Positions 16,715-64,000 of a stretch of DNA of 64,000 nt are shown piece after piece. The stretch covers positions 3,424,001 to 3,488,000 of the forward strand of contig CM000153.2 of the NCBI GenBank assembly GCA_000004695.1. Reading direction: 5' to 3'. The DNA comes from Dictyostelium discoideum (lineage: Eukaryota). Under the pieces are notes generated by a model. The model did not search any database and had not been told where the DNA came from. It worked only from the letters and a program-made list of their open reading frames with translations. Made by a program: the position numbers and the translations under genes. Position 1 is the stretch's first letter, and the number at the start of each line of letters is the position of its first letter.

Positions 16715-19406
16715 TTAAATACCAACAATTGATTTTAAAAATATTGAAGATAAAATTTTACCCATTTTCTTTTTATTATCGGCTAATTGTATGAATGGAT
16801 GTTTTAATAATTCTTGAGCAGAAGGACGTTTATGAGGATCCATTTGCAAACATTTATTGATGATATCGTGGAATTCATCACTCCATTTATGAGGATCTTC
16901 AAAGGGATCTTTAATACCTTCAGAGCCTACCATAAACATAGTTTTGATTGGATTTTTACGGAGTTTATTATTTCTATTTGCCAATTCCAATAAACAGATT
17001 GCAGTTGACCAAATATCACAAGTGTAACCATGTTGTTTTTGTTGAATCATCTCTGGTGGCATCCAAATTGGGGAACCACACATTCTGATACGTTCACCTT
17101 TGGAAAGGTTAGCACAAAGTCCGAAATCGATTAATTTAATCTCACCACTGGTGGTCATCATAATATTTTGAGATTTAAGATCACGATGCACCAATTGAAT
17201 GCCATGTAAATAGGCTAGACCTTGTAAAACCTCCCTTGCAACATAAGCGATATTACTCTCTTGGAATGGATATTGATTGGAGGCCTCGGCCAATGTACCA
17301 CCCTCCATAAACTCCATAGCAATCCAAACTTCATCATGAAGCATATGAGAATTATAGTAAGTGATAATGTTTGGATGATTCGTGAATTCCAATACTCGAA
17401 TTTCCTTTACATTGAATTTCTTCTCCTTCTTTCTAACATGTGGTAACTTTTTAATGGCGATTCTAGATTTAGATTTATCCATATTGTTTCTCACTAAATA
17501 TACAGTACCAAATCCACCCTTTCCAACCTTTTCCCTAAACGTATAAAGTTTCTTCATCTCATTTGTTGGTTTCTTACAAATTTGGTCAAATGGTCTCTTA
17601 TAGAATGATTTTGCAACTACCATTTGTCCTGAACCTGCTGGATCCAATATCATTGGTGGTGTACAATTACCACAAACATTACCAACATTATAATATTTTG
17701 GTTTATCTGGTAAATTGGTTGGATCACTTGAATAAAATCTTTGCTTTGTATGAAAGTGTAATAATGATAATATAATTTCAAAATGTTCATCAACCGACTC
17801 TTGTTTAATATCCCATGTTTTAACCATAGTTTTATATTCATCTGGTAATGATTCAAAATTTGGTGAAATAATTGTTTTTGAATTTTTCATTCTATCTGAT
17901 CCATCATCATAATTTTCAATTAATTCTTGATCCATTAAATTTGTAATTGGATTATGATTTTGATGTTGTGAATTTGGTTCATTTGAATTATTATTATTAT
18001 TATTATTATTACTATTATTATTATTATTATTATTATTACCATTTTTACTACCATTACTACCATTACTTAAATCATTACCACCATCTGGTGATGTAGCATT
18101 TAATTCTGCAATTTGTTGTTTTTGTATCTTTTGAATTTGTTCCATATGATGTTTATATAATTCAGCTGGTGGTATATTCTTTAATGCTAATTGATGTTCT
18201 TTTTCTCTTTCTTCTCTTTCTTTTTCTTCTTTTGCTTCTCTAGCTTCTCTTTCTTTTTTACTTTCTTTCTTTTCTTTAATTTTTTCAACTTTTTCTTTAT
18301 TATTATTATTATTACTACTTTCTTTATCCATTTTATTAAATAATTTTTTTAATAAACCAACTTTATTTTTTGGTTTAATTGATGTTGGTGATGTTATTCC
18401 TGATGAATTATTTTTAGATGTTGATTCAATTTGTTCACTATTATTTGAAGATGAAGTAGTTGTAGTTGTAGTAGTTGTAGTAGTAGTAGTTGGTGGTGTT
18501 GTTGTTTGTAAATTTGTAAAAGAAATATTATTTGAAAAAATTGTAGTTTTCCTCTTTGATGACATATTATTATAATAATAAGATGTTATATCATTTATTA
18601 ATGTACAAGAATCAACTTTTTCAAAGTGTGAATGTTTTTTTGAAGTTCCAAAGAAATCATTATATCCAATTAAATCATGTGCTTGTGGTAATGAAAATAA
18701 TTCATACTTTATAAAATAGATTGATGCTAAAACTAATCCAAAACAACATTCTTGAATTACAACTGGTTGTGTTGGTGTTCTACCTAATATTAATTGTGAA
18801 TATTGTTCAAAACTTTTTGCAATTGATAATATATCTTCATCTGATTCAAATTCAATAATTTGATAAGAAAAATACTTTTTTTTTTTTTTAAAAAAAAAAT
18901 AAAAATAAAAAAACAACTATTATTAGTATATATATAAATTTAAATTTTTTCAAAAATATTATTATTATTGTTATTATTATTACTTTTTGAGTTTTTTCAT
19001 CAATTTCTAAATGTGGTTCGGGAAAACCTAAAATTCTAATTTTTTCATTTTCTTCAAATTTTAAATATTGATTTGACATTAATGCTCTGATATCACCAAC
19101 ATATAAACAACTATACAATTCACGTAATGGTGATAAAGCATCAGATAAACTTAATAATGGTAATGGTGTTATGTTTCCTTCTGATGGTGTATTCACTTCA
19201 CTATTATTTGTAATTACACCACTACCACTAATATTCAATGATTTTAAACTTGTAATGCTATTACTTAATGTATTCAATTGTTCATTATTATTATTACTAT
19301 TACTACCATTATTATTATTATTGTTGTTGTTGCTATTAGTTGTAGTATTATTATGACTACTTGCTACAGTAATTGTAATATTATTTAATGTACTATTATT
19401 ATCCAT
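16715..19406 (-). CDS. STE20/PAK-like serine/threonine protein kinase with long low-complexity N-terminal region; 2 exons: complement(join(18984..19406,16715..18873))
   Basis: Exon 1 has ATG at 19406..19404 and ends ...[13 protein letters not shown], with donor GTAATA at 18983. Acceptor AG at 18875-18874 joins in phase 0 to [16 protein letters not shown].... The C-terminal kinase domain has [30 protein letters not shown] and GSPIWMPPE (STE20 signature GTPYWMAPE). Poly-Asn and poly-Thr tracts and a KEKEE charged repeat lie upstream. Confidence 0.8.
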
Positions 19407-19431
19407 TTTTTTTTTTTTTTTTTTATTATAC

Positions 19432-19463
<32 letters not shown>

Positions 19464-20312
19464 TTTTACACTAAATATAAATGAAATTATTAATAAAATG
19501 TATTATTTTAAAAAAAAATTTTTTTTTTTTTTCCCTCTTTCGTAAGAGTTTATTTAATAAATTATTAAATATAGAAATACAGTGGGAAGGTATTAAATAC
19601 AGTGATGAAAAAAAAAATACAAAATTAATTTTTTTAATATATATTAAAATAATAATAATAAATTAAAAAAACAAATTATTATTTTTTTTTATTTTATTTT
19701 TTTTTTTTTTTTAATAAAATAAAATAAAATAATAACAATAATAAATTAAATTAAAAAAAAATGAAAATAAACTCTGAACAAAAAATATCAAAAAATGGTG
19801 TGTATTTAATATTGTACTACTGTGTATTTTTGTGCGTGTTTGTGTTGTGTTTGTTATATATGTGGTGTGTTATTGATTTATATAAATATAAATGTTTATA
19901 TATATATATTAAATTAAATTAAAATATATATTAATAAATTAATTTTTTTTTTTTTTTTTTTTACTTTGTTTTGATTTGTTTTGGTTTGCTTTTATTTTTA
20001 TTAAACTATTTTTATTTTTTATTTTTTTATTAAAATTATGAACCAACCAGAGACTATTTTTATTTTTTTTTTTTTTTTATTTTTTATTTTTTATTTTTAA
20101 ATCGGTAAAATAATAACTGAAAAAGTGATTAATGTGAGATATTTTTAAAGTGTGGTGTGATTCGAGTGATTACTCTCTATCATTTAATAAAGTAATAAAA
20201 AAATTAATTAATTAAAAAAAAAAAAAAAAAAAATGTATAGAAATAAAAAAAAAAAAAATGATAATATTAAAAAAAAATAAAATAAAAAAATAATACAAAG
20301 TGAGTTTGTGTG

Positions 20313-20360
<48 letters not shown>

Positions 20361-20382
20361 TCCCCCTAAAAATAGAAATGTG

Positions 20383-20433
<51 letters not shown>

Positions 20434-20806
20434 CTTTGAACTTAAATTTTGTGATTGAATGGTGCTATTGTTAATTATGATAAATATAAAAATATCTTTA
20501 CTTTTTATTGTTAATTTTAATTTACTATTATTATTATTTTTTTTTTTATTATCATTTTTTTTTTTTTTTTTTGTTTAATTTTTTTTTTTTTAATATTTTT
20601 TTATTTTTTTTTTTTAATTTTACCTTTTATTACTGTTTTTTTTTTCCCTTAAATATTTTTTTCAATTTTAAAAAAATAAAAATTAAAACCAATCAATCGA
20701 TGTTTTAGTTATAATTTGAGACCTAAATAATATTACAACTAAAAAATTGGTTGAAAGGCCCTTTGATAAGCCCCAAATTCTTTTGAAAGTTTGGTGGTTT
20801 TTAATT

Positions 20807-45351: not shown

Positions 45352-46119
45352 ATGTTTAAATTAAATTTTAAAAATAATTATAAAGTTTTAACACTTTTAT
45401 TCTCTTTGACTCTTTCAATGTTTGTTTCAAATGCTCAAGTTTATTACCCAGGCTATTTAAATAATGTATCTAGTATTTCAACGGTTTCTGCAGATTATTT
45501 CCCACTTTTAGTTCACAATCCTCCATTAACCAATTCTACAACTTATTCTTTTAATGAGGCTATTAATTTACTTGACACAGTTACTGATCCAATTTTTAAT
45601 GCTACTCAAATTCAAGCATTACTTAATACATGGGCCTCAAATGTTAAAGCCGTTATTGGTCTTTCTTTACCAATTTATGTTACACAACTCAATAGAATTA
45701 ATCGTATTGATTTACTCTCAATTCAAATGTATACAGAAACCAATAGTGCCTTCATCCTCAGTGCTACAACCTATGCTCCATTAAAACCACAAGGTGTGTC
45801 AATTCTCAACCAAGTTAATGCAATTAAAGCTTCATTGAATGGTATTACTTTAACAACTACTCAACAAGCTCAATTGACTCAATTCAATGCTGCAATTTCT
45901 AAAATTCAACTTTCTGTCTCAAATAGCCATTTAATTACTTTTGGTGCTAATGATGTTATTCCATTCAACTCTGACTCTTTATCTTACATGGAATATATTG
46001 CTGATGATATTTTAACATTAGATGATGCTATTGATATAATTAAACAAAATAATGTTAGAATTTTAAATTATATTTATGATTTATATTCAACACACAAAAC
46101 TTTAAGCTTAAATTTTTAA
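45352..46119 (+). CDS. S-family small secreted protein (255 aa), paralogue of 50787..51530 and 56410..57210
   Basis: Signal MFKLNFKNNYKVLTLLFSLTLSMFVSNAQ. It shares a C-terminal SYM...LY...L.F block with the other two (SLSYMEYIADDI...ILNYIYDLYSTHKTLSLNF). It is Thr/Ser/Asn-rich with no TM. Confidence 0.6.
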   Translation: MFKLNFKNNYKVLTLLFSLTLSMFVSNAQVYYPGYLNNVSSISTVSADYFPLLVHNPPLTNSTTYSFNEAINLLDTVTDPIFNATQIQALLNTWASNVKAVIGLSLPIYVTQLNRINRIDLLSIQMYTETNSAFILSATTYAPLKPQGVSILNQVNAIKASLNGITLTTTQQAQLTQFNAAISKIQLSVSNSHLITFGANDVIPFNSDSLSYMEYIADDILTLDDAIDIIKQNNVRILNYIYDLYSTHKTLSLNF

Positions 46120-47997: not shown

Positions 47998-49428
47998 ATG
48001 AAAAATAATGTTTTTTTTTCAATTTTATTTTTAACCATCAGTTTTTTGATTTGTGTTCCAAATGCAACATCTCAAACACTTTCAACAGCCATCACATTGA
48101 AAGTTGATTTCGGTTCTATAACACCATATGTCAATAGTGAGTGTGGTGGCATTTTGGATAGTAGCGATACCACAATCTATCCACCATGTAAAAGTTTTAA
48201 AGACGCAGGCAATAGAGCCAGACAATATCTCAACAGTGGACTTGCAATTCCAAATAGTAACTACCTCACCATCAGTGTTATTAATACTGCAATTACACCA
48301 AACATTGACGGTGAATCAGCTCAACTTGGAAACCTTTTTGGATTTTGTACTGTCGATATTTTAATTGCCACCACCACATCACGTGCAATTGTAGATGGAA
48401 CTTTATCAACATCTCACTTTGTCAGTCTCCAAGAACCAAATGTTCCAAACACATCATACCAATGTAGTTCTGGAAAAACATTAAGAATTAGAAATATTGA
48501 ATTTAAAAATTGGGGTAACCAAACAATCGTATACACCAATTTAAATCAAGTTTTCAATAGCCTCACCAAGCAATCCATTTTCTTCGCAACAGTATACACA
48601 TGGTTTTCCAACAGTATTATCAACGTTCAACCAAAAGGCACAAACTTTGAATATGGATCTGTAGCTTTTCAATGCAGTATTTGCTATTTTAATAACATCA
48701 ATTCATCATTAACTTTACCACCATTCAACTTTAATGGTGCCAATGTAGTTATTATAGGCTCTCGTTTCCTTAATTCCATATTAAACTCATCACCATTTAT
48801 TTACTCAAATATCGGTCTCTTCAATTTAAAGGCAACAAGTTTAATTGATAATGTCGTTATCAATAATGGTCATCCATTTGTAAAAACTTTGAATGTTGGC
48901 GATAATTTTTACTACACTGGCGTTACAGTCTCCAATTGCCAATTCTCAAAATTTATACAACACGAAAATAACAAAATCAATGCTCCAAGAGAATCTGCAA
49001 TTCTACATATCTCAACTATGTATTTAATTAATAACATTATCACCTCAAACTACAATGATCCAACAAATTCATTTTTTTCATTCCAAAATTTCATTGGTGC
49101 GTCTTATACCTTGGATTTTAATACTATATCTTCATCAGGTAACATCGTTCTCGGTCAAAACAAATCTTTTATTTCTAATCAAAATTCAAATTCCACGAGC
49201 TCTTTCTCAGAACCTCCAAGTGATTTCCAAATAGGGTTTAACACTGAAAATTCACACACTGATATATTATATTCAAGCGTTTTATCAACCATTCCTTTTG
49301 TTGGATCCAATTCAATCTTTACTTTCTCCTCCTCTGGTGATTGTATTATCGCAAACACTGCAAATTATAACCATTGTGGTACCTGTCAAATTATAGTTGA
49401 TTCTGATATAAAATATGATAATCTATAA
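47998..49428 (+). CDS. L-family (secreted subtype, 476 aa); inverted duplicate of 36993..38417
   Basis: Signal MKNNVFFSILFLTISFLICVPNATS, then near-identical sequence through ...HENNKINAPRESAI. The C-terminal 140 aa diverge and end ...NHCGTCQIIVDSDIKYDNL. The alternate-frame artefact ORF 48128..48364 equals 38054..38314 on the opposite strand. Confidence 0.7.
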   Translation: MKNNVFFSILFLTISFLICVPNATSQTLSTAITLKVDFGSITPYVNSECGGILDSSDTTIYPPCKSFKDAGNRARQYLNSGLAIPNSNYLTISVINTAITPNIDGESAQLGNLFGFCTVDILIATTTSRAIVDGTLSTSHFVSLQEPNVPNTSYQCSSGKTLRIRNIEFKNWGNQTIVYTNLNQVFNSLTKQSIFFATVYTWFSNSIINVQPKGTNFEYGSVAFQCSICYFNNINSSLTLPPFNFNGANVVIIGSRFLNSILNSSPFIYSNIGLFNLKATSLIDNVVINNGHPFVKTLNVGDNFYYTGVTVSNCQFSKFIQHENNKINAPRESAILHISTMYLINNIITSNYNDPTNSFFSFQNFIGASYTLDFNTISSSGNIVLGQNKSFISNQNSNSTSSFSEPPSDFQIGFNTENSHTDILYSSVLSTIPFVGSNSIFTFSSSGDCIIANTANYNHCGTCQIIVDSDIKYDNL

Positions 49429-51962: not shown

Positions 51963-51965
<3 letters not shown>

Positions 51966-53627
51966 ATAAATCAACCAAATTATTTATTATTTTTTTTATT
52001 ATTTATTTATTTAAATATTTTGGTTGTGAATTCAGATGAAAATATCTTTGTAAATTACAATGTTAATAGAAATTATATTAAACCAGAGGAATGTGGTTCA
52101 TTGGAAATTCCATGTGTTTCTTTAGAAGATGCTGGAAATAAAGCAATTTTAGAAAATAAAAATGGAATTGAAAAAATTATTATCAATATTATTGGAAATA
52201 TCAATGGGTCTACATCGGCATCATTTGGTAATTTATATAGTTTTTGTGGTGTTTTGGAAATTAATTCCTATGACACTCAAAAAATAACGATTGATGGATC
52301 AAATTCAAATAACCCATTTATTAATATTCAAGAGAATCAGTATGAAAGTTGTTTAATTCCAAAAAAATTTCCGATTAGAAATATTAATTTTAAAAACTGG
52401 GAGCAAACATTGGTAAATATTAATATCAACCAAGAAACAAATCAAACTGTAAATGTGGAATCACTATTTATATATTTTACCAATAATACCATGAATTCTT
52501 TAAGTAATATTATTTCTGTTTATCCAAAGAACATGGGAGAGATTTTCAATTCAAAATCAATTTCGATACAGTTTGATAATTCTTTGGCTGAAAAATTAAA
52601 ACCATCGTCAACTTTTGCACCAAATTCAAATACTGATTATTTACCACCCATTTATGTTGTTGGAGCTACAATTAAAAGTATACCTAGTTTAAATGATAAT
52701 AACTTTACCACCACTCCTTTTATTTATCTCAGTCAGGCAATTTTAAGATCTTCACTTCAAACAATCACTAACAACAATTTTTGTTATCCATTTGCAATTT
52801 CAACAAATAAGAGTACTGTGAGCTTTGCAAATTTGTTTGCACCTTTTGACAATAATAAGATTAAAACTCTTCTTTTCATTTCTGACTCATATAATGTTGA
52901 TAGTCTTTTCTTTAACTTTACCAATAATATGCCAGCCGTTTGTTCCAGTAAACAATACCTAGGTAATATATTTGATGACTCTTTTATCACAGTAAAAAAT
53001 TCTTTCAATTCGACTCTTATTACTGGTATTTCACCAAATAAACCTTTACCTGTTTCAATATTTAATAGTGTCACCGAATTAAATTCAATTGATTTAAACC
53101 GTTTTAATTTTAATATTGTCAATAGTGTTGTCATCTTTCGTTTTAATCTTACACTTTCTGAATGTACTATCACTGGAAGTAACTCTGCTCTATACCTAGA
53201 ATATAATGAAACTTTGTGTAGTTGCCCAGGTTGTGACTACTATATGAATGAAAGAAAAGCTTTCTCAACAGATTGCAATCCACCAACTGTAACTCCAACC
53301 ACTACAGGTATAGATACAACCAGAGAACCATCACCATCACCATCATCATCATCGTCATCATCTCCAAAAAATAACTCCATTAGAAACATTGTCATAATTA
53401 TTGTTATTTTGGGGTCAGCATCTATTGCTTCAATTGTACTCTTTTCTTTCATCTACAAAAGACATAAAAATAAAAAGTATATACTAAATTCCATTTCTTC
53501 AAGTAATACTATGAGTGAAGAAGATAATGACTTAGCAGGTGCAGCTGCCGATAATGATGTATCACCAAATCTCGAATCTACTACTGCCTTTGAAGATGAT
53601 GATTGTGCACAATTAGAACATATTTAA
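51963..53627 (+). CDS. L-family type-I membrane glycoprotein (554 aa) with TM and acidic cytoplasmic tail ending AQLEHI
   Basis: Signal MINQPNYLLFFLLFIYLNILVVNS. Motifs EECGSLEIPCVSLEDAGNKAILEN, FGNLYSFCGVLEI, IRNINFKNWEQTLVNININQETN, VYPKNMGEIF, LPPIYVVGATI and CSCPGCDYYMNE. An S/P stalk is followed by TM IVIIIVILGSASIASIVLFSFIY. The tail is KRHKNKKY...EDDDCAQLEHI. Confidence 0.7.
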
Positions 53628-54016: not shown

Positions 54017-54634
54017 AAATAATAATAATAAGAATTAAACATTAAACCAATAAAAACAATCCCACATTGTTATAAAAAAAAAAAAAAAATTTTTTCAACT
54101 ACCATCGGTAAGAAACTTTTTAGCAAAAAATAAAAAAACAAACATTGGATAAAAAAAAAAAAAAAAAAATTAAAAAAAAAAGATTATGAAAACCGATTGT
54201 TTTTTTTTTTTTTTTTTTAATATTTTATTATTTTCTAAGATCCAAAAATACCAAATATTACCCCCTTTCCCTAAAAAAAAAAAAAAAAAAAAAATTAATA
54301 GAAAAATATTGTTTATCACAGGTTAAGAGGATATTTTTTCAAAGATCCTAATTTTTTGGCAAACGAAATTGATTTTTTTATTTATTGCGACGATCCTTTT
54401 CTTCTTTTTGATTTTTATTTTTTTTTATTTTTTTTTTTATTTTTTATTTTTTTTTTCAAAATATCTAACTTCCAAATTTTTTTATTATAAAACGATCAAT
54501 ACCACTTAGGAACACAAGAACTCTTTTTTCTTTTCTTTTTTTTTTTTTTTTTTTTATTTTTTTTTTTTTTTTTTTTAATGTAATTTTTCTTTTTTTTTTA
54601 TTTTTTTTTTTATACATTAGATTTACTATAAAAA

Positions 54635-56047
54635 ATGTATAAAGGATTTAATTTTCTTTTTTTGATTTTATTTTTATTGTTAGCATTTAATATCTCATTC
54701 ATAGTTTCACAAAACACTATTTCAGTTAATTATAATGTGCAAAGAAATTATAATTCATTTGAAGAATGTGGTTTAATTGGTGAACCAGTTTGTACATCAT
54801 TGGAAGATGCAGGTAATAGAGCAATTTTATTATCAAAAACAAGTAACCCAACAAACTTCATCAATATCATTGGTAATATTGATGGATCAACACCTGTCAC
54901 ATTTGGTAATTTATATAATTATTGTGGTAGATTGTTTATTAGATCAAGTAATAGCAATATAAGTATTAATATTAATGGATCAAATTCGACTCAACAACCA
55001 TTCCTCACCATTCAAGAAGCTGATCAACCAAATTCGACTTTTCCATGTTCAATTCCAAGAATATTTCAATTCCAATATATTAATTTTACAAACTGGAACC
55101 AAACACTTGTAAATATTAATATTAATCACGAAACAGATTTAAATTCAGTTAATCCATCAAAGAGTTTAACAGTTTATTTTCAACTTGTAAACATAATTTC
55201 TTCAAGTAGTATTTTAAAGATTTATCCAAAGAACTTTGGTGAAAATTATAATTTACAAGCAATTACTGTGGCATATTTATCAACAATTGGTATAGATTTA
55301 AAATCATCATCGGTTTTATTTTTACCAAATTCGACCCAATTTTATTTACCACCAATTTATTTAGTTGGTGCATCAATAATTTCAATTTTAAGTTTATCAG
55401 ATAGTACATTTGAATCAACACCATTTATTTTCTCTGACAATGGAAGTGTATCTTCAGTAGATTCCGAAGTTTCAAATAATAACTTCTATTCATATCCATT
55501 CATTATGGCCGTCAATGGTGGAAAGGTATTACTTCCTATCCTTTCTTTTACAAATAATAGTCTTTCAACTTTTGTTTACTTTTCAAATTTTAATAATCAA
55601 CCATCAATTAAAGTTACATTTTCAAATAACATCTTTGGAAATTCATTCATTCAGAATAGTAAATTTATGAAATATAAATATGAAAATTCTATTTTTGTAA
55701 TAAAAGATAGTGACTTTTCCACCATTGATCTTTTAGGTTATTCAATTTTAAATCAAAACACCATCACCAACGATTTAATATACATAGTAAATAGTAGTTT
55801 AAATTTAGATAATAGTGTAATTAGATCACCAATGTTAGTTCCTCAACATATAATTAATTCAATTAATAGTTCAGTTTCAATTATTAATTTTAACCTTACA
55901 ATCAGCGAACTACCAATTGTTGGTTATAATTCAAATATACATCTATTTAGTTCAGTTTTCACAAACAATGTTTATTGCGGTTGCCAAGGCTGCTCCTATT
56001 ATATTCAATTGGATTTGGTTAATTTAAATCAGTATTCATCTCAATAA
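54635..56047 (+). CDS. L-family secreted glycoprotein (470 aa, no TM); tandem duplicate of the partial gene at 62954..64000
   Basis: Signal MYKGFNFLFLILFLLLAFNISFIVS. Motifs EECGLIGEPVCTSLEDAGNRAILLS, FGNLYNYCGRLFI, YINFTNWNQTLVNININHETD, IYPKNFGENYN, LPPIYLVGASI and YCGCQGCSYYIQLD. It ends shortly after the Cys cluster. Confidence 0.7.
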   Translation: MYKGFNFLFLILFLLLAFNISFIVSQNTISVNYNVQRNYNSFEECGLIGEPVCTSLEDAGNRAILLSKTSNPTNFINIIGNIDGSTPVTFGNLYNYCGRLFIRSSNSNISININGSNSTQQPFLTIQEADQPNSTFPCSIPRIFQFQYINFTNWNQTLVNININHETDLNSVNPSKSLTVYFQLVNIISSSSILKIYPKNFGENYNLQAITVAYLSTIGIDLKSSSVLFLPNSTQFYLPPIYLVGASIISILSLSDSTFESTPFIFSDNGSVSSVDSEVSNNNFYSYPFIMAVNGGKVLLPILSFTNNSLSTFVYFSNFNNQPSIKVTFSNNIFGNSFIQNSKFMKYKYENSIFVIKDSDFSTIDLLGYSILNQNTITNDLIYIVNSSLNLDNSVIRSPMLVPQHIINSINSSVSIINFNLTISELPIVGYNSNIHLFSSVFTNNVYCGCQGCSYYIQLDLVNLNQYSSQ

Positions 56048-58505: not shown

Positions 58506-60356
58506 TTATAACCTTTCTAGTTGTGCGAAATCTTCATACTCTTGTTCATAAGCCACTACCGATATGTCAATGGTCGGAGAAACTGCTTTTTCATCCTCAT
58601 CTGCAACAGCAATACATGTGCCATCATTAAGTACACTATCATTTGAACTAATTTTATCATGATTATGGAGCTGTGAGTTTGAGATATATTTATTATTTTT
58701 ATGTCTTTTATAAATGAATGAAAATATAATAAGGGATCCAATAGACGCAATACCCAAAACTGAAGTGATAATAGCAATATTCCTTGATCTGCTACTTTTT
58801 GGAGAATTTGGTGTTGCAGTTGATGTTGGTACTGGTGTTTGAGTTGGTTTTTGAGTTGATGTTTCGGTTGTTGGGCTTTCCGTTGGTGTATCTGTTGGTG
58901 TGTCTGTTGGTGTGTCTGTTGGTGTGTCTGTTGGTGTATCTGTTGGTGTATCTGTTGGTGTGTCTGTTGGATTAGAACCACATGGATAGTTTGTGTTATC
59001 ATGTATGGTTTCTCCTAAATAATAACTGCAATTTTGGCAACCACAAAAAGATTCATTTGTAAAGGTGAAAGGATTTAAAAAAAATATGGAGGAATTGCTT
59101 CCAATAATGGGTGTATCAGAATTACTTAGGTCCAAACCAGATAAACTGACTGAACTACTTTCTGTTTTTAAAAAATAATTGGGTGATATAAGTGAAGAAA
59201 TTTCCCTGAATGCAAAAGAGAGTGAACTGTTTTCAACAAAAACTAAAAAGTTTTCAATTGAATTTAAGGAAAGAGTTGATTGCAAACAATCTTTAATTTC
59301 TACGTGGCTCTTTTTGATTACTGCAAATGAATCTTCATATTCAAGTCCAAGATATTTATTTCTGTGATAAAATGGTGTTTGTGTGGTATTCTCGTATTCA
59401 AAGTTAAATAGTGTTGCGCCATTGCAATCATATAAATATATGAATGTGGAGAGTTGGTTGTTTTTGAAAATTAATAATTTCAGTGTGACCAAGGAGCTGA
59501 TTGACAAAATGAATGGATTCACCGAGAAATTATTGTTTGACATTGTTTGAGTTGGAATGTTAATCTCTCCACCTTGGATAAAAACAAACGGAGTAGACAA
59601 GAATGTTCCATTATCTATATTCATACCTCTATTAATAAAACCACCGACCACATAAATAGGTGGTACATAATCGGTAACTGAACCTGGTGCAAACAGACTT
59701 GAAGACGACTTTAAGTTATAACCTAAGGTTGATATAAAATGTACAGTGGTGAACCTTGCGTTGTAAATCTGGCCTAAATTCTTTGGATAAACCATTAATA
59801 TGCTACTTGATGAATATATATTTACACGATTGAAATAAAGAGCAAACGATTTTGAATTGTTAGTTGAAGTTAAATTTGTTTCTTGATTAATGTTGATTTT
59901 TGCAATTGTTTGGTCCCAATTTATGAAATTTATATATTGCAAATAGAAATATCTTTGTGATGTACATGAATAGGTTGAATTTGGTTGATCTGGCTCTTCA
60001 ATATTGAGAAATGGTTGTTGCGTTGAGTTCCAACCATCAATGTTAATATATACAGTGTCACTACCCGATTTAATATATAATTTACCACAATAATTATATA
60101 AATTTCCCAATGAAACAGGTGTTGATCCATTAATATCACTAATAATAATAATATTATTACTTGTATTGGTTTTTGATAATAAAATAGCTCTATTTGAAGC
60201 ATCCTCTAATGATGTACAAACTGGTTGATTATCTACACCACATTCTTCAAAAGAATTGTAATTTCTTTCAACATTATAATTAACTTTAATATCTGTTGCA
60301 ACGCAAATATTTAATAAAAAAAATAATAAATAAAAATATTTTAATTTTTCAATCAT
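58506..60356 (-). CDS. L-family type-I membrane glycoprotein (616 aa) with (PTDT)n stalk, TM and tail ending AQLERL
   Basis: Signal MIEKLKYFYLLFFLLNICVA. Motifs EECGVDNQPVCTSLEDASNRAILLS, LGNLYNYCGKLYI, YINFINWDQTIAKININQETN, VYPKNLGQIYN, VPPIYVVGGFI and FCGCQNCSYYLGE. A (TDTP)8 stalk is followed by TM IAIITSVLGIASIGSLIIFSFIY. The tail KRHKNNKY...YEDFAQLERL is homologous to that of 51963..53627. Confidence 0.7.
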   Translation of the reverse strand: MIEKLKYFYLLFFLLNICVATDIKVNYNVERNYNSFEECGVDNQPVCTSLEDASNRAILLSKTNTSNNIIIISDINGSTPVSLGNLYNYCGKLYIKSGSDTVYINIDGWNSTQQPFLNIEEPDQPNSTYSCTSQRYFYLQYINFINWDQTIAKININQETNLTSTNNSKSFALYFNRVNIYSSSSILMVYPKNLGQIYNARFTTVHFISTLGYNLKSSSSLFAPGSVTDYVPPIYVVGGFINRGMNIDNGTFLSTPFVFIQGGEINIPTQTMSNNNFSVNPFILSISSLVTLKLLIFKNNQLSTFIYLYDCNGATLFNFEYENTTQTPFYHRNKYLGLEYEDSFAVIKKSHVEIKDCLQSTLSLNSIENFLVFVENSSLSFAFREISSLISPNYFLKTESSSVSLSGLDLSNSDTPIIGSNSSIFFLNPFTFTNESFCGCQNCSYYLGETIHDNTNYPCGSNPTDTPTDTPTDTPTDTPTDTPTDTPTDTPTESPTTETSTQKPTQTPVPTSTATPNSPKSSRSRNIAIITSVLGIASIGSLIIFSFIYKRHKNNKYISNSQLHNHDKISSNDSVLNDGTCIAVADEDEKAVSPTIDISVVAYEQEYEDFAQLERL

Positions 60357-60944: not shown

Positions 60945-61471
60945 ATTTTAAAATGGATTTTCCCACTGGGACTGTTGTTCTTTTTTTTTTTTTTTTAAAA
61001 AATAAAATAAAATAATATAAAAGTATATTTAAATATAAAATATAAAACAAAACTAAACAAATATATTTAAATAATTGTTTATTTTATTTTTTTCCAAAAA
61101 CAATTTTAATTTTTAATTTAATTTATTTTCCTATTTTTATATTGTTCTATTTTACTTTTACTTTTATTTTATTTTATTTTATTTTATTTTATTTTGATCT
61201 TTTTTTTTTATAATTTTTATTTTCCAATCTAGCGGGTTTTATATATATTTTTTTCTTTGTGTATAATTTTTTATTTTTTTTTATTTTTTTTATTTTATAT
61301 TTACTACTAATTAAAGTGAATGAAAACTACCCTCTCTTTCTCATTTTTTTTTATTGTTTTAAATTTTTTAAAAATAAAGTTAGTAGTTCAGTTTTTTTAA
61401 AAAAAAAAATGACGAAACATGGGTTTAACAGAAAAAAAAAAAAAAAATCTGTTGTATTTTTTGCATTTTCT

Positions 61472-61504
<33 letters not shown>

Positions 61505-61699
61505 CTCTTCTTTACAAATTACGACAATAGTCAAAAAAAATTAATTGAGCAAAGATGAATTTGGTGTAGAAGATATTGGTCAACCAAAAGAAAACAAAAT
61601 ATAAATCAATTAAAGCATACCAAATCATTTATGTGTAGGTTGTTTTTTTTTTTTTTTTTTTTTAAAAAAATAATAAATTAATAGTTACTAATTTTTTTT

Positions 61700-62480
61700 T
61701 TTCAAAAATTTAGATTATACCGTATTGGTTTGTTGGATCATTAAAAATTTTAGTTCCAACATGTAAAACTCGTGTAGTGAGAATTGCAGTGGCATTAAAA
61801 GAAAGAGCTCATTGGTAAAAGAACACTTAAATCCGGGTTTAGCTCCAATTAGTAGAAAATTTCGTACGAGAGGGTTGTAATGATGATACCTTTCCACACT
61901 TTGTTTCACATCGTTCCATTAAAGCTGCATTGAGATCAAGTGGTCATACCGCCATTGGTTCTGTTGGTAGTTCTGGGTATACTCGTTCTTTTTGTGCCCT
62001 TCTACCACCTGGCCATTGATTCACCCACCAACTGCTCCAAAACCTTTTTATCGTGGTGCAGCCGGTAATGCAACAACAGCAGGAAACAACTTCACAATTT
62101 CAAAATAAATTGGAGACTCAAATACCACACACCAAATTCATAGATAATGTGGCTCATTTACTACACACACTGCAATTGGTGGGGATGTCCAACCTATGTA
62201 ATCGTTTCAACCATATGGTTGATATGAAGAATAAATATAGTAGAATTGCAATGTTGTGGATTTCGATATTCACCATGGTAATGGAACACCACTCTTGAGA
62301 TCCAAAATCAAATTCAATATCAGATTTGGTCGGGGTGTTAATGCGGCACCCATCATCAGTGATGATTAGTAAAAATATGTTCAATATTTTAATATAGTTG
62401 GGATTTCAAAGAGGTACCATTGGAGGAAATATTTTAAAAGTCGATTATCAGCAGTGAATCCAACCAAGTACAACAATTTA
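61700..62480 (+). pseudogene. GC-richer (about 40% GC) frame-broken relic with histone-deacetylase/AcuC-like motif fragments
   Basis: CALLPPGH followed by a stop (62002..62019) resembles the HDAC RPPGHHA motif. VVDFDIHHGNGTP (62253..62291), in a different frame, resembles HDAC V(D)xDxHHGNGT. Surrounding ORFs in all frames are short and interrupted. Composition is clearly different from flanking DNA. Confidence 0.3.
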
Positions 62481-62859
62481 ATTTTAAAAAAAAATATTAA
62501 AAAATTTATTAAAAATATTAAATAAAATTTATTAAAAGTTTATTTTCACCAGAATAACCGATACCAGAAAAAAAAAAAAAAAAAAAACAAAAAAAAAAAA
62601 AAAAATTAAATTTGAAAAATATCGTTCATCCTTAATTATGAGGAAAAACTATTTTTTTTTTTTTTTTAAAAAGACTTTTATCTAGTTTTTGGCAAATGGT
62701 GTCAAGAAAAAAAAATATTTTTACTTTAATTTTTTTTTATTTTTTTTTTTTTATTTTTTTTTTTTCAAAATATCTTGCTCGAACTTATTTTTATTATAAA
62801 ATGATCAAAAACACTTAGAAACACAAGAACTCTTTTTTTTTTTTCTTTACTTTTTTTTC

Positions 62860-62890
<31 letters not shown>

Positions 62891-62893
62891 TAT

Positions 62894-62940
<47 letters not shown>

Positions 62941-62953
62941 ATTTGTAATAAAA

Positions 62954-64000
62954 ATGTATAAAGGATTTAATTTTCTTTATTTGTCAGTAGTCTTATTGTT
63001 AGCATTTAATATCTCATTCACATTTTCACAAAACACTATTTCAGTTAATTATAATGTGCAAAGAAATTATAATTCATTTGAAGAATGTGGTTTAAATGGT
63101 GAACCAGTTTGTACATCATTGGAAGATGCAGGTAATAGAGCAATTTTATTATCAAAAACAAGTAATCCAACAAACATCATCAATATCATTGGTAATATTG
63201 ATGGATCAACACCTGTCACATTTGGTAATTTATATAATTATTGTGGTAAATTGTTTATTAGATCAAGTATTAGTAATGTCAATATTAATATTAATGGATC
63301 AAATTCGACTCAACAACCATTCCTCACCATTCAAGAAGCTGATCAACCAAATTCGACTTTTCCATGTTCAATTCCAAGAATATTTCAATTCCAATATATT
63401 AATTTTACAAATTGGGATCAAACACTTGTAAATATTAATATTAATCAAGAAACAGATTTAAATTCAGTTAATCCATCAAAGAGTTTAACAGTTTATTTTC
63501 AACTTGTAAATATAATTTCTTCAAGTAGTATTTTAAAGATTTATCCAAAGAACTTTGGTGAAAATTATAATTTACAAGCAATTAAAGTTTCATTTATATC
63601 AACAATTGGAATAGACTTAAAATCATCATCGGTTTTATTTTCACCAAGTTCAACCCAATATTATTTACCACCAATTTATTTAGCCGGTGCATCAGTAACT
63701 AGAATTTTAAGTTTATCAGATAGTACATTTGAATCAACACCATTTATTTTCTCTGATAATGGAGGTGTATCATCTGGAAGTTTCGTCGTTTCAAATAATA
63801 ACTTCTCTTCAAATCCATTCATTATGGCCGTCAATGGTGGAACTGTAGCACTTCCTACCCTTTCTTTTACAAATAATATTCTTTCAACATTTATTTACTT
63901 TTCAAATTTTTATAATCAACCATTAATTCAGGCTACATTTTCAAATAACATCTTTGGAAATTCTTTCGTTCAGAATAATAAATTTATGGAATATGAAAAT
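62954..64000 (+). CDS. L-family glycoprotein, 5' portion (runs off window end); tandem duplicate of 54635..56047
   Basis: ATG at 62954. MYKGFNFLYLSVVLLLAFNISFTFSQNTISVNYNVQRNYNSFEECGLNGEPVCTSLEDAGNRAILLSKTSNPTN... is about 90% identical to 54635..56047. The upstream 250 bp (62700..62950) is also homologous to 54380..54630. Confidence 0.65.
   Translation, partial: MYKGFNFLYLSVVLLLAFNISFTFSQNTISVNYNVQRNYNSFEECGLNGEPVCTSLEDAGNRAILLSKTSNPTNIINIIGNIDGSTPVTFGNLYNYCGKLFIRSSISNVNININGSNSTQQPFLTIQEADQPNSTFPCSIPRIFQFQYINFTNWDQTLVNININQETDLNSVNPSKSLTVYFQLVNIISSSSILKIYPKNFGENYNLQAIKVSFISTIGIDLKSSSVLFSPSSTQYYLPPIYLAGASVTRILSLSDSTFESTPFIFSDNGGVSSGSFVVSNNNFSSNPFIMAVNGGTVALPTLSFTNNILSTFIYFSNFYNQPLIQATFSNNIFGNSFVQNNKFMEYEN

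Follow-up and report, generated by a model that had tools for sequence, protein, structure and literature searches.

Dictyostelid hdaC proteins are class II histone deacetylases (HDACs) that carry a FYVE-type zinc finger and are encoded by roughly 1500-1900 codons. Dictyostelium discoideum reportedly has four class I/II HDAC genes, hdaA to hdaD. In HDACs two of the three zinc ligands come from the DxH of the DFDIHHGNGT-type motif, the SAGFD region contributes the third (an Asp) and EGGY holds the catalytic Tyr. The same Pfam family, PF00850, contains short bacterial HDAC-like amidohydrolases (AcuC/APAH-like proteins, including 5ji5 and proteins of Phenylobacterium), whose motifs read RPPGHH and VDFD(I/V)HHGNGT. 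Another type of known sequence that is relevant here is the fragmentary (non-processed) pseudogene of eukaryotes, which combines homology to a functional gene with disabling lesions, deletion polymorphism and no detectable constraint.

The locus considered in this work is an island at 61700-62480 (+) in D. discoideum AX4, adjoining DDB_G0285621. The window, by which we mean the whole 64-kb stretch of DNA that was analysed, is AX4 nuclear DNA, as its ORF at 51963-53627 is identical to DDB_G0285621 of that strain (XP_638168.1). We conclude that the island is very probably a non-functional, decayed remnant of hdaC, the class II histone deacetylase gene native to this species. As such it is an ordinary pseudogene relic of a well-known kind, which shares all of the properties of fragmentary pseudogenes listed above and differs from typical examples only by its contrast with a spacer of 10-20% GC and by its mis-annotation as protein-coding. 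The island matches the catalytic stretch ...YDTFVSHRSMKAALRASG...SGYTRAFCAIRPPGH of dictyostelid hdaC at 57% identity. Compared with the intact genes, it retains about 100 recognizable codons and is without the N-terminal regions, the FYVE finger and the C-terminal half of the domain. The features of the locus are as follows.

61631..62019, + strand: footprint of the annotated gene model DDB_G0285625, join(61631..61634, 61853..62019)
61700..62480, + strand: whole GC-elevated island, a probable decayed hdaC-derived fragment plus decayed flanks without assignment, delimited by composition and with stops in all frames
61715-61909, - strand: short ORF, 64 aa
61780..61868, + strand: possible further-decayed segment of hdaC positions 149-176, colinear with the next segment
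61870..62016, + strand: best-preserved segment, profile positions 196-246 (...DTF..FVSHRSIKAALRSSG..SSGYTRSFCALLPPGH), with no internal stop or frameshift
62017..62019, + strand: TGA stop at the site of the second His of the catalytic PPGHH pair
62018..62084, + strand: possible decayed segment, colinear with hdaC positions 256-280, weak
62053-62298, + strand: longest short ORF, 81 aa
62071..62231, + strand: 161-bp piece, out of order between the two core segments
62154-62384, - strand: short ORF, 76 aa
62236..62288, + strand: second significant segment, profile positions 281-297 (YSRIA / VVDFDIHHGNGT)
62289..62480, + strand: GC-elevated 3' tail

The island differs from its surroundings in base composition. 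Mean GC is 0.367 over 61700-62480, compared with 0.224 for the entire window; when measured in 200-bp windows, GC is 0.335-0.445 across 61700-62299 and 0.08-0.21 in the flanking spacers. The first-pass annotation, which had been made from the sequence without database searches, had described about 40% GC between AT-rich flanks. This description is correct for the flanks and for the core (peak 44.5%), and is slightly generous for the mean. In the best segment (measured over 61900-62016), GC1/GC2/GC3 is 0.51/0.64/0.18, and GC3 of the neighbouring genes is 0.16-0.26. The GC excess therefore resides in the first two codon positions of a conserved core rich in Gly, Ala, Ser, Pro and Arg, while the silent positions are host-like. 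We interpret the GC richness of the island as a fossil of protein-coding constraint on codon positions 1 and 2.

Six-frame translation shows how the reading frame is broken. The codons of ...SFCALLPPGH (...GYTRSFCALLPPGH) end at 62016 and are directly followed by TGA at 62017-62019. The other conserved motif is found as CNVVDFDIHHGNGTP at 62247-62291 and, with a slightly earlier start, as NCNVVDFDIHHGNGTP at 62244-62291, both in a frame other than that of LLPPGH; the frames of CNVVDFDIHHGNGTP and of the LLPPGH motif are offset by 2. Over 61700-62480 there are 8-17 stops in each plus frame and 9-21 in each minus frame. The initial reading that LPPGH and VDFDIHHGNGT are present in different frames and separated by stops was therefore accurate. 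Its count of three overlapping short ORFs on both strands was accurate as to strands and overlap, and the actual number is higher. Neither an uninterrupted frame nor a plausible set of exons runs across the domain, as the two segments that match hdaC lie in different frames, and the DNA between them is not an AT-rich intron-like spacer (GC 0.35-0.44 throughout). Rfam (E up to 1) and ARAGORN gave no RNA genes in the island. The minus strand has a superficially actin-like look that found no support in Pfam, which gave no match on that strand of the island.

To identify the relatives of this sequence, the unaltered 58-residue ORF piece from 61843-62016 was used as the query of an exhaustive phmmer search against 1.8 billion representative proteins. 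Low-complexity matches aside, the search returned only the product of DDB_G0285625 (98% identical) and four long dictyostelid hdaC proteins, with 53-59% identity and E-values of 1e-6 to 2e-4. These four are from Tieghemostelium lacteum, Polysphondylium violaceum, Synstelium polycarpum and one EukProt entry; the T. lacteum protein is annotated as 'hdaC, FYVE-type zinc finger-containing protein' (KYR00611.1, 1499 aa). No bacterial or other HDAC rose above the reporting threshold in this search. In the converse direction, the four dictyostelid hdaC catalytic domains were compared with the whole window by tblastn, a form of the check that had been proposed with the first description of the island. 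Matches were confined to the island, where 61870-62016 is 50-57% identical (E 6e-12 to 1e-9) and 62253-62288 is 83-92% identical (E 4e-3). The assignment to the histone-deacetylase/acetoin-utilisation superfamily (PF00850), which had been made from motifs, is thus upheld by phmmer, tblastn and profile matches and can be narrowed to the hdaC subfamily.

A profile of 468 positions built from the four dictyostelid hdaC domains assigns 43.5 bits to 61870-62016 and 9.7 bits to the second segment, which are colinear and on one strand. In frameshift-aware protein-to-DNA alignments, 61870-62016 scores 141 with 28 of 49 residues identical (shuffled DNA 30.6 +/- 3.5), and 62236-62288 scores 82, with 16 of 17 residues identical to hdaC YSRIAVVDFDVHHGNGT (shuffled DNA 29.6 +/- 4.6). 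Judged against shuffled DNA, the similarity of both segments to hdaC is far above chance. The island also shares with hdaC a number of subfamily-specific residues that lie outside the universal motifs, namely FVSHRS.KAALR.SG, SGYTR.FCA and YSRIAVVDFD. The closest relatives in these searches are the hdaC proteins of other genera. Since the parentage rests on these orthologues, an extinct hdaC paralogue is also a possible parent. Identity between the relic and hdaC is 57% in a region where hdaC orthologues across genera share 77-85%.

The degree of preservation varies strongly along the island. Only about 200 bp of its 780 bp is significantly hdaC-like, and the best-kept part is 61870..62016, with a clean frame of 49 codons and strong period-3 composition. 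Where the profile reads 'ppghh', the island reads PPGH followed by the stop, which interrupts the catalytic His-His pair. The second significant segment contains one frameshift between YSRIA and VVD, and retains DFDIHHGNGT at 62259-62288. Six-frame comparison with Pfam gave a single PF00850 match of 12 residues (13.9 bits, E 0.035), which is below the curated gathering score of 27.9 and is to be compared with a domain of roughly 300 residues.

Elsewhere in the island (61650-61880, 62015-62255 and 62290-62520) no alignment exceeds shuffled DNA, and this holds when only colinear hdaC positions are compared. Alignments of the 5' part and the 3' tail with bacterial HDACs have no statistical support either. 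Two weak alignments nevertheless fall exactly where colinearity predicts, which is suggestive only. The alignment of 61780-61868 scores 30 (shuffles 25.7 +/- 5.0, reached by 58 of 300), and that of 62018-62084 scores 31 (shuffles 23.8 +/- 4.5, reached by 27 of 300); the latter reads DSPT/Q..LLQNLFI/GAAGNATTAG where hdaC has DAPSQGYCLINNVAIGAKYASLTAG. The 3' tail compared with hdaC positions 298-420 scores 26, a value reached by 250 of 300 shuffles, and neither the profile nor frameshift-aware alignment over these positions revealed a match in the tail to the SAGFD/SAGFDGH or EGGY/EGGYG regions. The C-terminal third of the HDAC domain is thus undetectable in the island, and of the zinc ligands and catalytic Tyr only the DxH motif can be recognized. 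Significant homology accompanied by a stop, a frameshift, an insertion and a truncation is the usual signature of a pseudogene, and the option of a 'decaying gene copy', one of three origins suggested at first pass, is the one that is borne out by the hdaC homology, the stop after PPGH and the 8-21 stops in every frame.

A second hdaC-like sequence is informative about the insertion. This locus, L003, resides on contig JBTAPG010000053.1 of the D. discoideum assembly GCA_054859355.1, between a DnaJ-like gene and a gene of the Ribosomal_L26 family, and was found through the predicted protein ACTFIW_001544, which has QQETTSQFQNKLETQIPH in common with the island. In a blastn comparison, the 161-bp piece at 62071-62231 is 88% identical to L003 10264-10429 (E 4e-51); nothing else, including the flanks, is common to the island and L003. 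Downstream, L003 10426-10703 matches hdaC profile positions 89-177 (E about 1e-10 and 1e-6). The locus is read in three frames, as FKTIAIYH..., as VPNFYLEKLDRIQVTAICNNEYAARQPLVDIIYNPPE, and as RYLIAVQNANNIKKL followed by a stop and TSL..PPENSEFET. L003 is itself a second, independent hdaC relic, which is frameshifted, stop-containing and intergenic. It is better preserved than the island (44-62% identity), represents the N-terminal edge of the domain and is on a different contig. In total, the relic at 10066-10703 takes in the start of the domain (FKTIAIYH..HLEKPDRI..PPENSEYETH, profile positions 27-177) and so complements the island, which accounts for positions 196-297. The 163-aa gene model ACTFIW_001544 overlaps the L003 relic and is probably spurious. 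If D. discoideum has the four genes reported for it, the relics at the island and at L003 would be extra dead copies of hdaC sequence.

In L003 the 161-bp piece is located directly upstream of the FKTIAIYH..HLEKPDRI segment, which is the place of a variable linker in hdaC, and QFQNKLETQIP within the piece resembles ELQDKIKLSIP of the hdaC profile. The probable source of the piece is therefore the hdaC linker. Within the island it lies between core positions of about 280 and 281, such that 216 bp separates the two significant segments where hdaC has 34 codons. The island is thus a mosaic, in which a colinear fragment of the hdaC core is split by an insertion resembling the hdaC linker. Such a mosaic could have arisen through rearrangement within a single ancestral copy or through transfer from one relic to another.

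The orthologous region of two further D. discoideum assemblies, GCA_054859355.1 (L001) and GCA_054859385.1 (L002), was reached via the orthologues of a neighbouring gene. L001 keeps 61610-61847 (82% identity), 62128-62235 (87%) and 62260-62305, and is without 61848-62127. L002 keeps only 62260-62305, about 46 bp around HHGNGT, together with the tail. Both are without the 24 bp at 62236-62259 that carry the YSRIA..VVD codons, and the entire DDB_G0285625 ORF is absent from both. The relic has therefore been lost or further degraded in both assemblies, and deletions are eroding it differently in each lineage. In the alignment, L001 and L002 both carry the junction of the 161-bp piece with the HHGNGT segment, from which it follows that the mosaic is older than the divergence of these genomes. 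The entire 21-kb cluster around the island is 90-96% identical between AX4 and L001/L002, and with a divergence of 4-10% the sequences compared are possibly not close alleles of one species. The divergence could reflect either hypervariability of the cluster or a deep split between the strains.

The spacer holds other differences between these assemblies. A segment of roughly 240 bp at 61166-61410 is inverted in AX4 relative to L001 19256-19071 and L002 19038-18814. A decayed coding-like fragment (...RLAENGATIIHLKTHGGWSSDKVAEG, a stop, NFQKS...SDPVSNDPVSSDPV...) is found in L001 at about 19400-19760 and in L002 at 19200-19640 (-), and is absent from the AX4 site. L001 also contains a 610-bp AT-rich insert at 20100-20711, between the equivalents of 61609 and 61610; a long reading frame in it looks coding (...IIGAARYFDVEFPQLDLYIINYDN...EVEIGVKA), and the insert is absent from AX4 and L002. 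None of these additional L001 and L002 fragments, the 610-bp insert included, gave a significant Pfam match.

The cluster occupies about 42000-64000 of the window and consists of paralogous genes for proteins with a signal peptide and transmembrane segment, starting at 47998, 51963, 54635, 58506(-) and 62955, among which members of a second gene family are interspersed, at 45352, 50787 and 56410(-). Pfam found no domain in the one cluster gene that was tested. The island lies between two of the paralogues, 58506-60356 (-) and the gene that starts at 62955. A direct duplication relates 62718-63998 to 54405-55678 (91% identical) and takes in the promoter as well as the 5' half of the MYKGFNFL... 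gene, and a more distant inverted paralogue is present at 59776-60285 (79% identical). The proposal that the island lies between duplicated segments and may mark a rearrangement breakpoint holds only loosely: strains differ in the structure of the spacer, through an inversion, insertions and deletions, but in AX4 the edge of the duplication lies some 240 bp farther downstream.

Several other explanations for the island need to be considered. Horizontal acquisition, which was also raised at first pass, would make it a decaying fragment of a bacterial AcuC/APAH-like gene, perhaps from food bacteria or Paraburkholderia symbionts, with its GC left over from a GC-rich donor. The island is indeed GC-rich relative to the genome, and a stitched peptide in which the stop was replaced by His has as its best PDB match 5ji5 (BuphA.10154.a.B1, which we take to be a Burkholderia structural-genomics target), in two colinear segments with E 1.6e-5. 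One word-indexed protein search with a stitched peptide yielded no match at E up to 0.01. The unedited stitched peptide matches some 40 AcuC-like proteins from bacteria, each about 308 aa long, the best of which is Phenylobacterium-like (E 4.8e-3 in 5.8 billion sequences). However, the bacterial matches were partly chosen by 5-mers shared with the island, one PDB query carried His for the stop, and the identity of the bacterial short HDACs is only 25-32%, over 42-67% of the stitched peptide, where the alignment goes beyond the shared motif. Dictyostelid hdaC reaches 53-59%, and gives 44 bits over 58 residues where the bacterial proteins give 35 bits over 242. Because the island resembles hdaC specifically, in residues beyond the universal motifs, and because its GC3 of 0.18 is that of host genes and not that of the GC-rich bacterial genomes, we reject bacterial acquisition as extremely unlikely; the nearest relatives are dictyostelid, and the composition is not donor-like. 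The third suggested origin, a remnant of transposon cargo, can be widened to include filler DNA captured during double-strand-break repair, as an account of the fragments at both the island and L003. Two relics at unrelated loci have the 161-bp piece in common, the piece is out of order inside the island, and the same spacer in other strains harbours an inversion and other decayed coding-like fragments. On the other hand, searches around the island revealed neither terminal inverted repeats nor target-site duplications nor any similarity to transposon proteins, and the only repeat matches were of A/T low complexity. The island is single-copy within the window, and the 161 bp it shares with L003 extends into no common flanks or ends. 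An origin as mobile-element cargo or repair filler is consequently quite improbable.

The annotation of DDB_G0285625 (XP_638173.1, Q54MX0) as a 56-aa 'hypothetical protein' of AX4 in RefSeq and UniProt raises the question of whether part of the island is a functional gene. A spliced functional gene had been named in advance as an observation that would speak against a decayed copy, and a spliced model does exist. An exhaustive search of splice combinations showed that join(61631..61634, 61853..62019) is the sole way to make XP_638173.1. The model has a first exon of 4 nt (ATGT), an intron of 218 nt with GT..AG ends that crosses the 5' portion of the island, where GC is raised, and a second exon that follows the relic ORF as far as the TGA. 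In favour of a real small gene, specific to the AX4 lineage and exapted from the HDAC fossil, are the database entries and the fact that its ORF is the best-preserved part of the island, with coding-like period-3 composition. We nevertheless judge this very unlikely, given the contrived exon-intron structure, a product that stops inside the catalytic His-His motif and would amount to one third of one lobe of the alpha/beta fold, the deletion of the ORF in two other D. discoideum assemblies, and a literature search that found no mention of DDB_G0285625. The model is probably an annotation artefact, created when a gene finder rescued the longest ORF still left in the relic. A broader proposal makes the spacer a hotspot where ectopic gene fragments are captured and reshuffled, perhaps in connection with the rapid diversification of the surrounding cluster (4-10% between the assemblies), in which case DDB_G0285625 could be an incipient gene formed from such debris. 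This proposal draws on a presumed exchange of 161 bp between the two hdaC relics and on the other decayed fragments and the inversion at the same site, and we consider it quite improbable.

The decayed hdaC fragment that we favour could have formed by the following series of events. A stretch of hdaC coding DNA would have been copied into one of the intergenic spacers in a rapidly rearranging tandem cluster of membrane-protein genes, where it was presumably never, or only briefly, under selection and has decayed since. The lesions that it carries are the stop in the His-His pair, the frameshifts, the 161-bp out-of-order insertion and the loss of sequence beyond about profile position 300. AT-biased mutation together with deletions would then be erasing the relic, so that strains retain different amounts of it, and the relic itself would do nothing.

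These findings have consequences mainly for annotation. DDB_G0285625 should be re-annotated as a pseudogene fragment derived from hdaC rather than as a hypothetical protein, and the model ACTFIW_001544 over the L003 relic is likewise suspect. Two papers on Dictyostelium deacetylases make no mention of hdaC pseudogenes. The island adds nothing to the biology of HDACs. In a very AT-rich genome, though, a GC island can be a fossil of codon positions 1 and 2 and need not be foreign, and the present case is a caution for composition-based screens for horizontal gene transfer in such genomes. The comparison of strains, in addition, shows a relic in the course of being eroded by deletions.

The window contains a second local GC peak (0.43), which coincides with a (PTDT)n or Pro-Thr-rich repeat at 58556-59002 and has a strong GC skew (0.63). 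The repeat lies in the gene at 58506-60356 (-), in the predicted extracellular stalk of its product. Because this repeat yields a GC peak, it shows that GC peaks here follow amino-acid composition.
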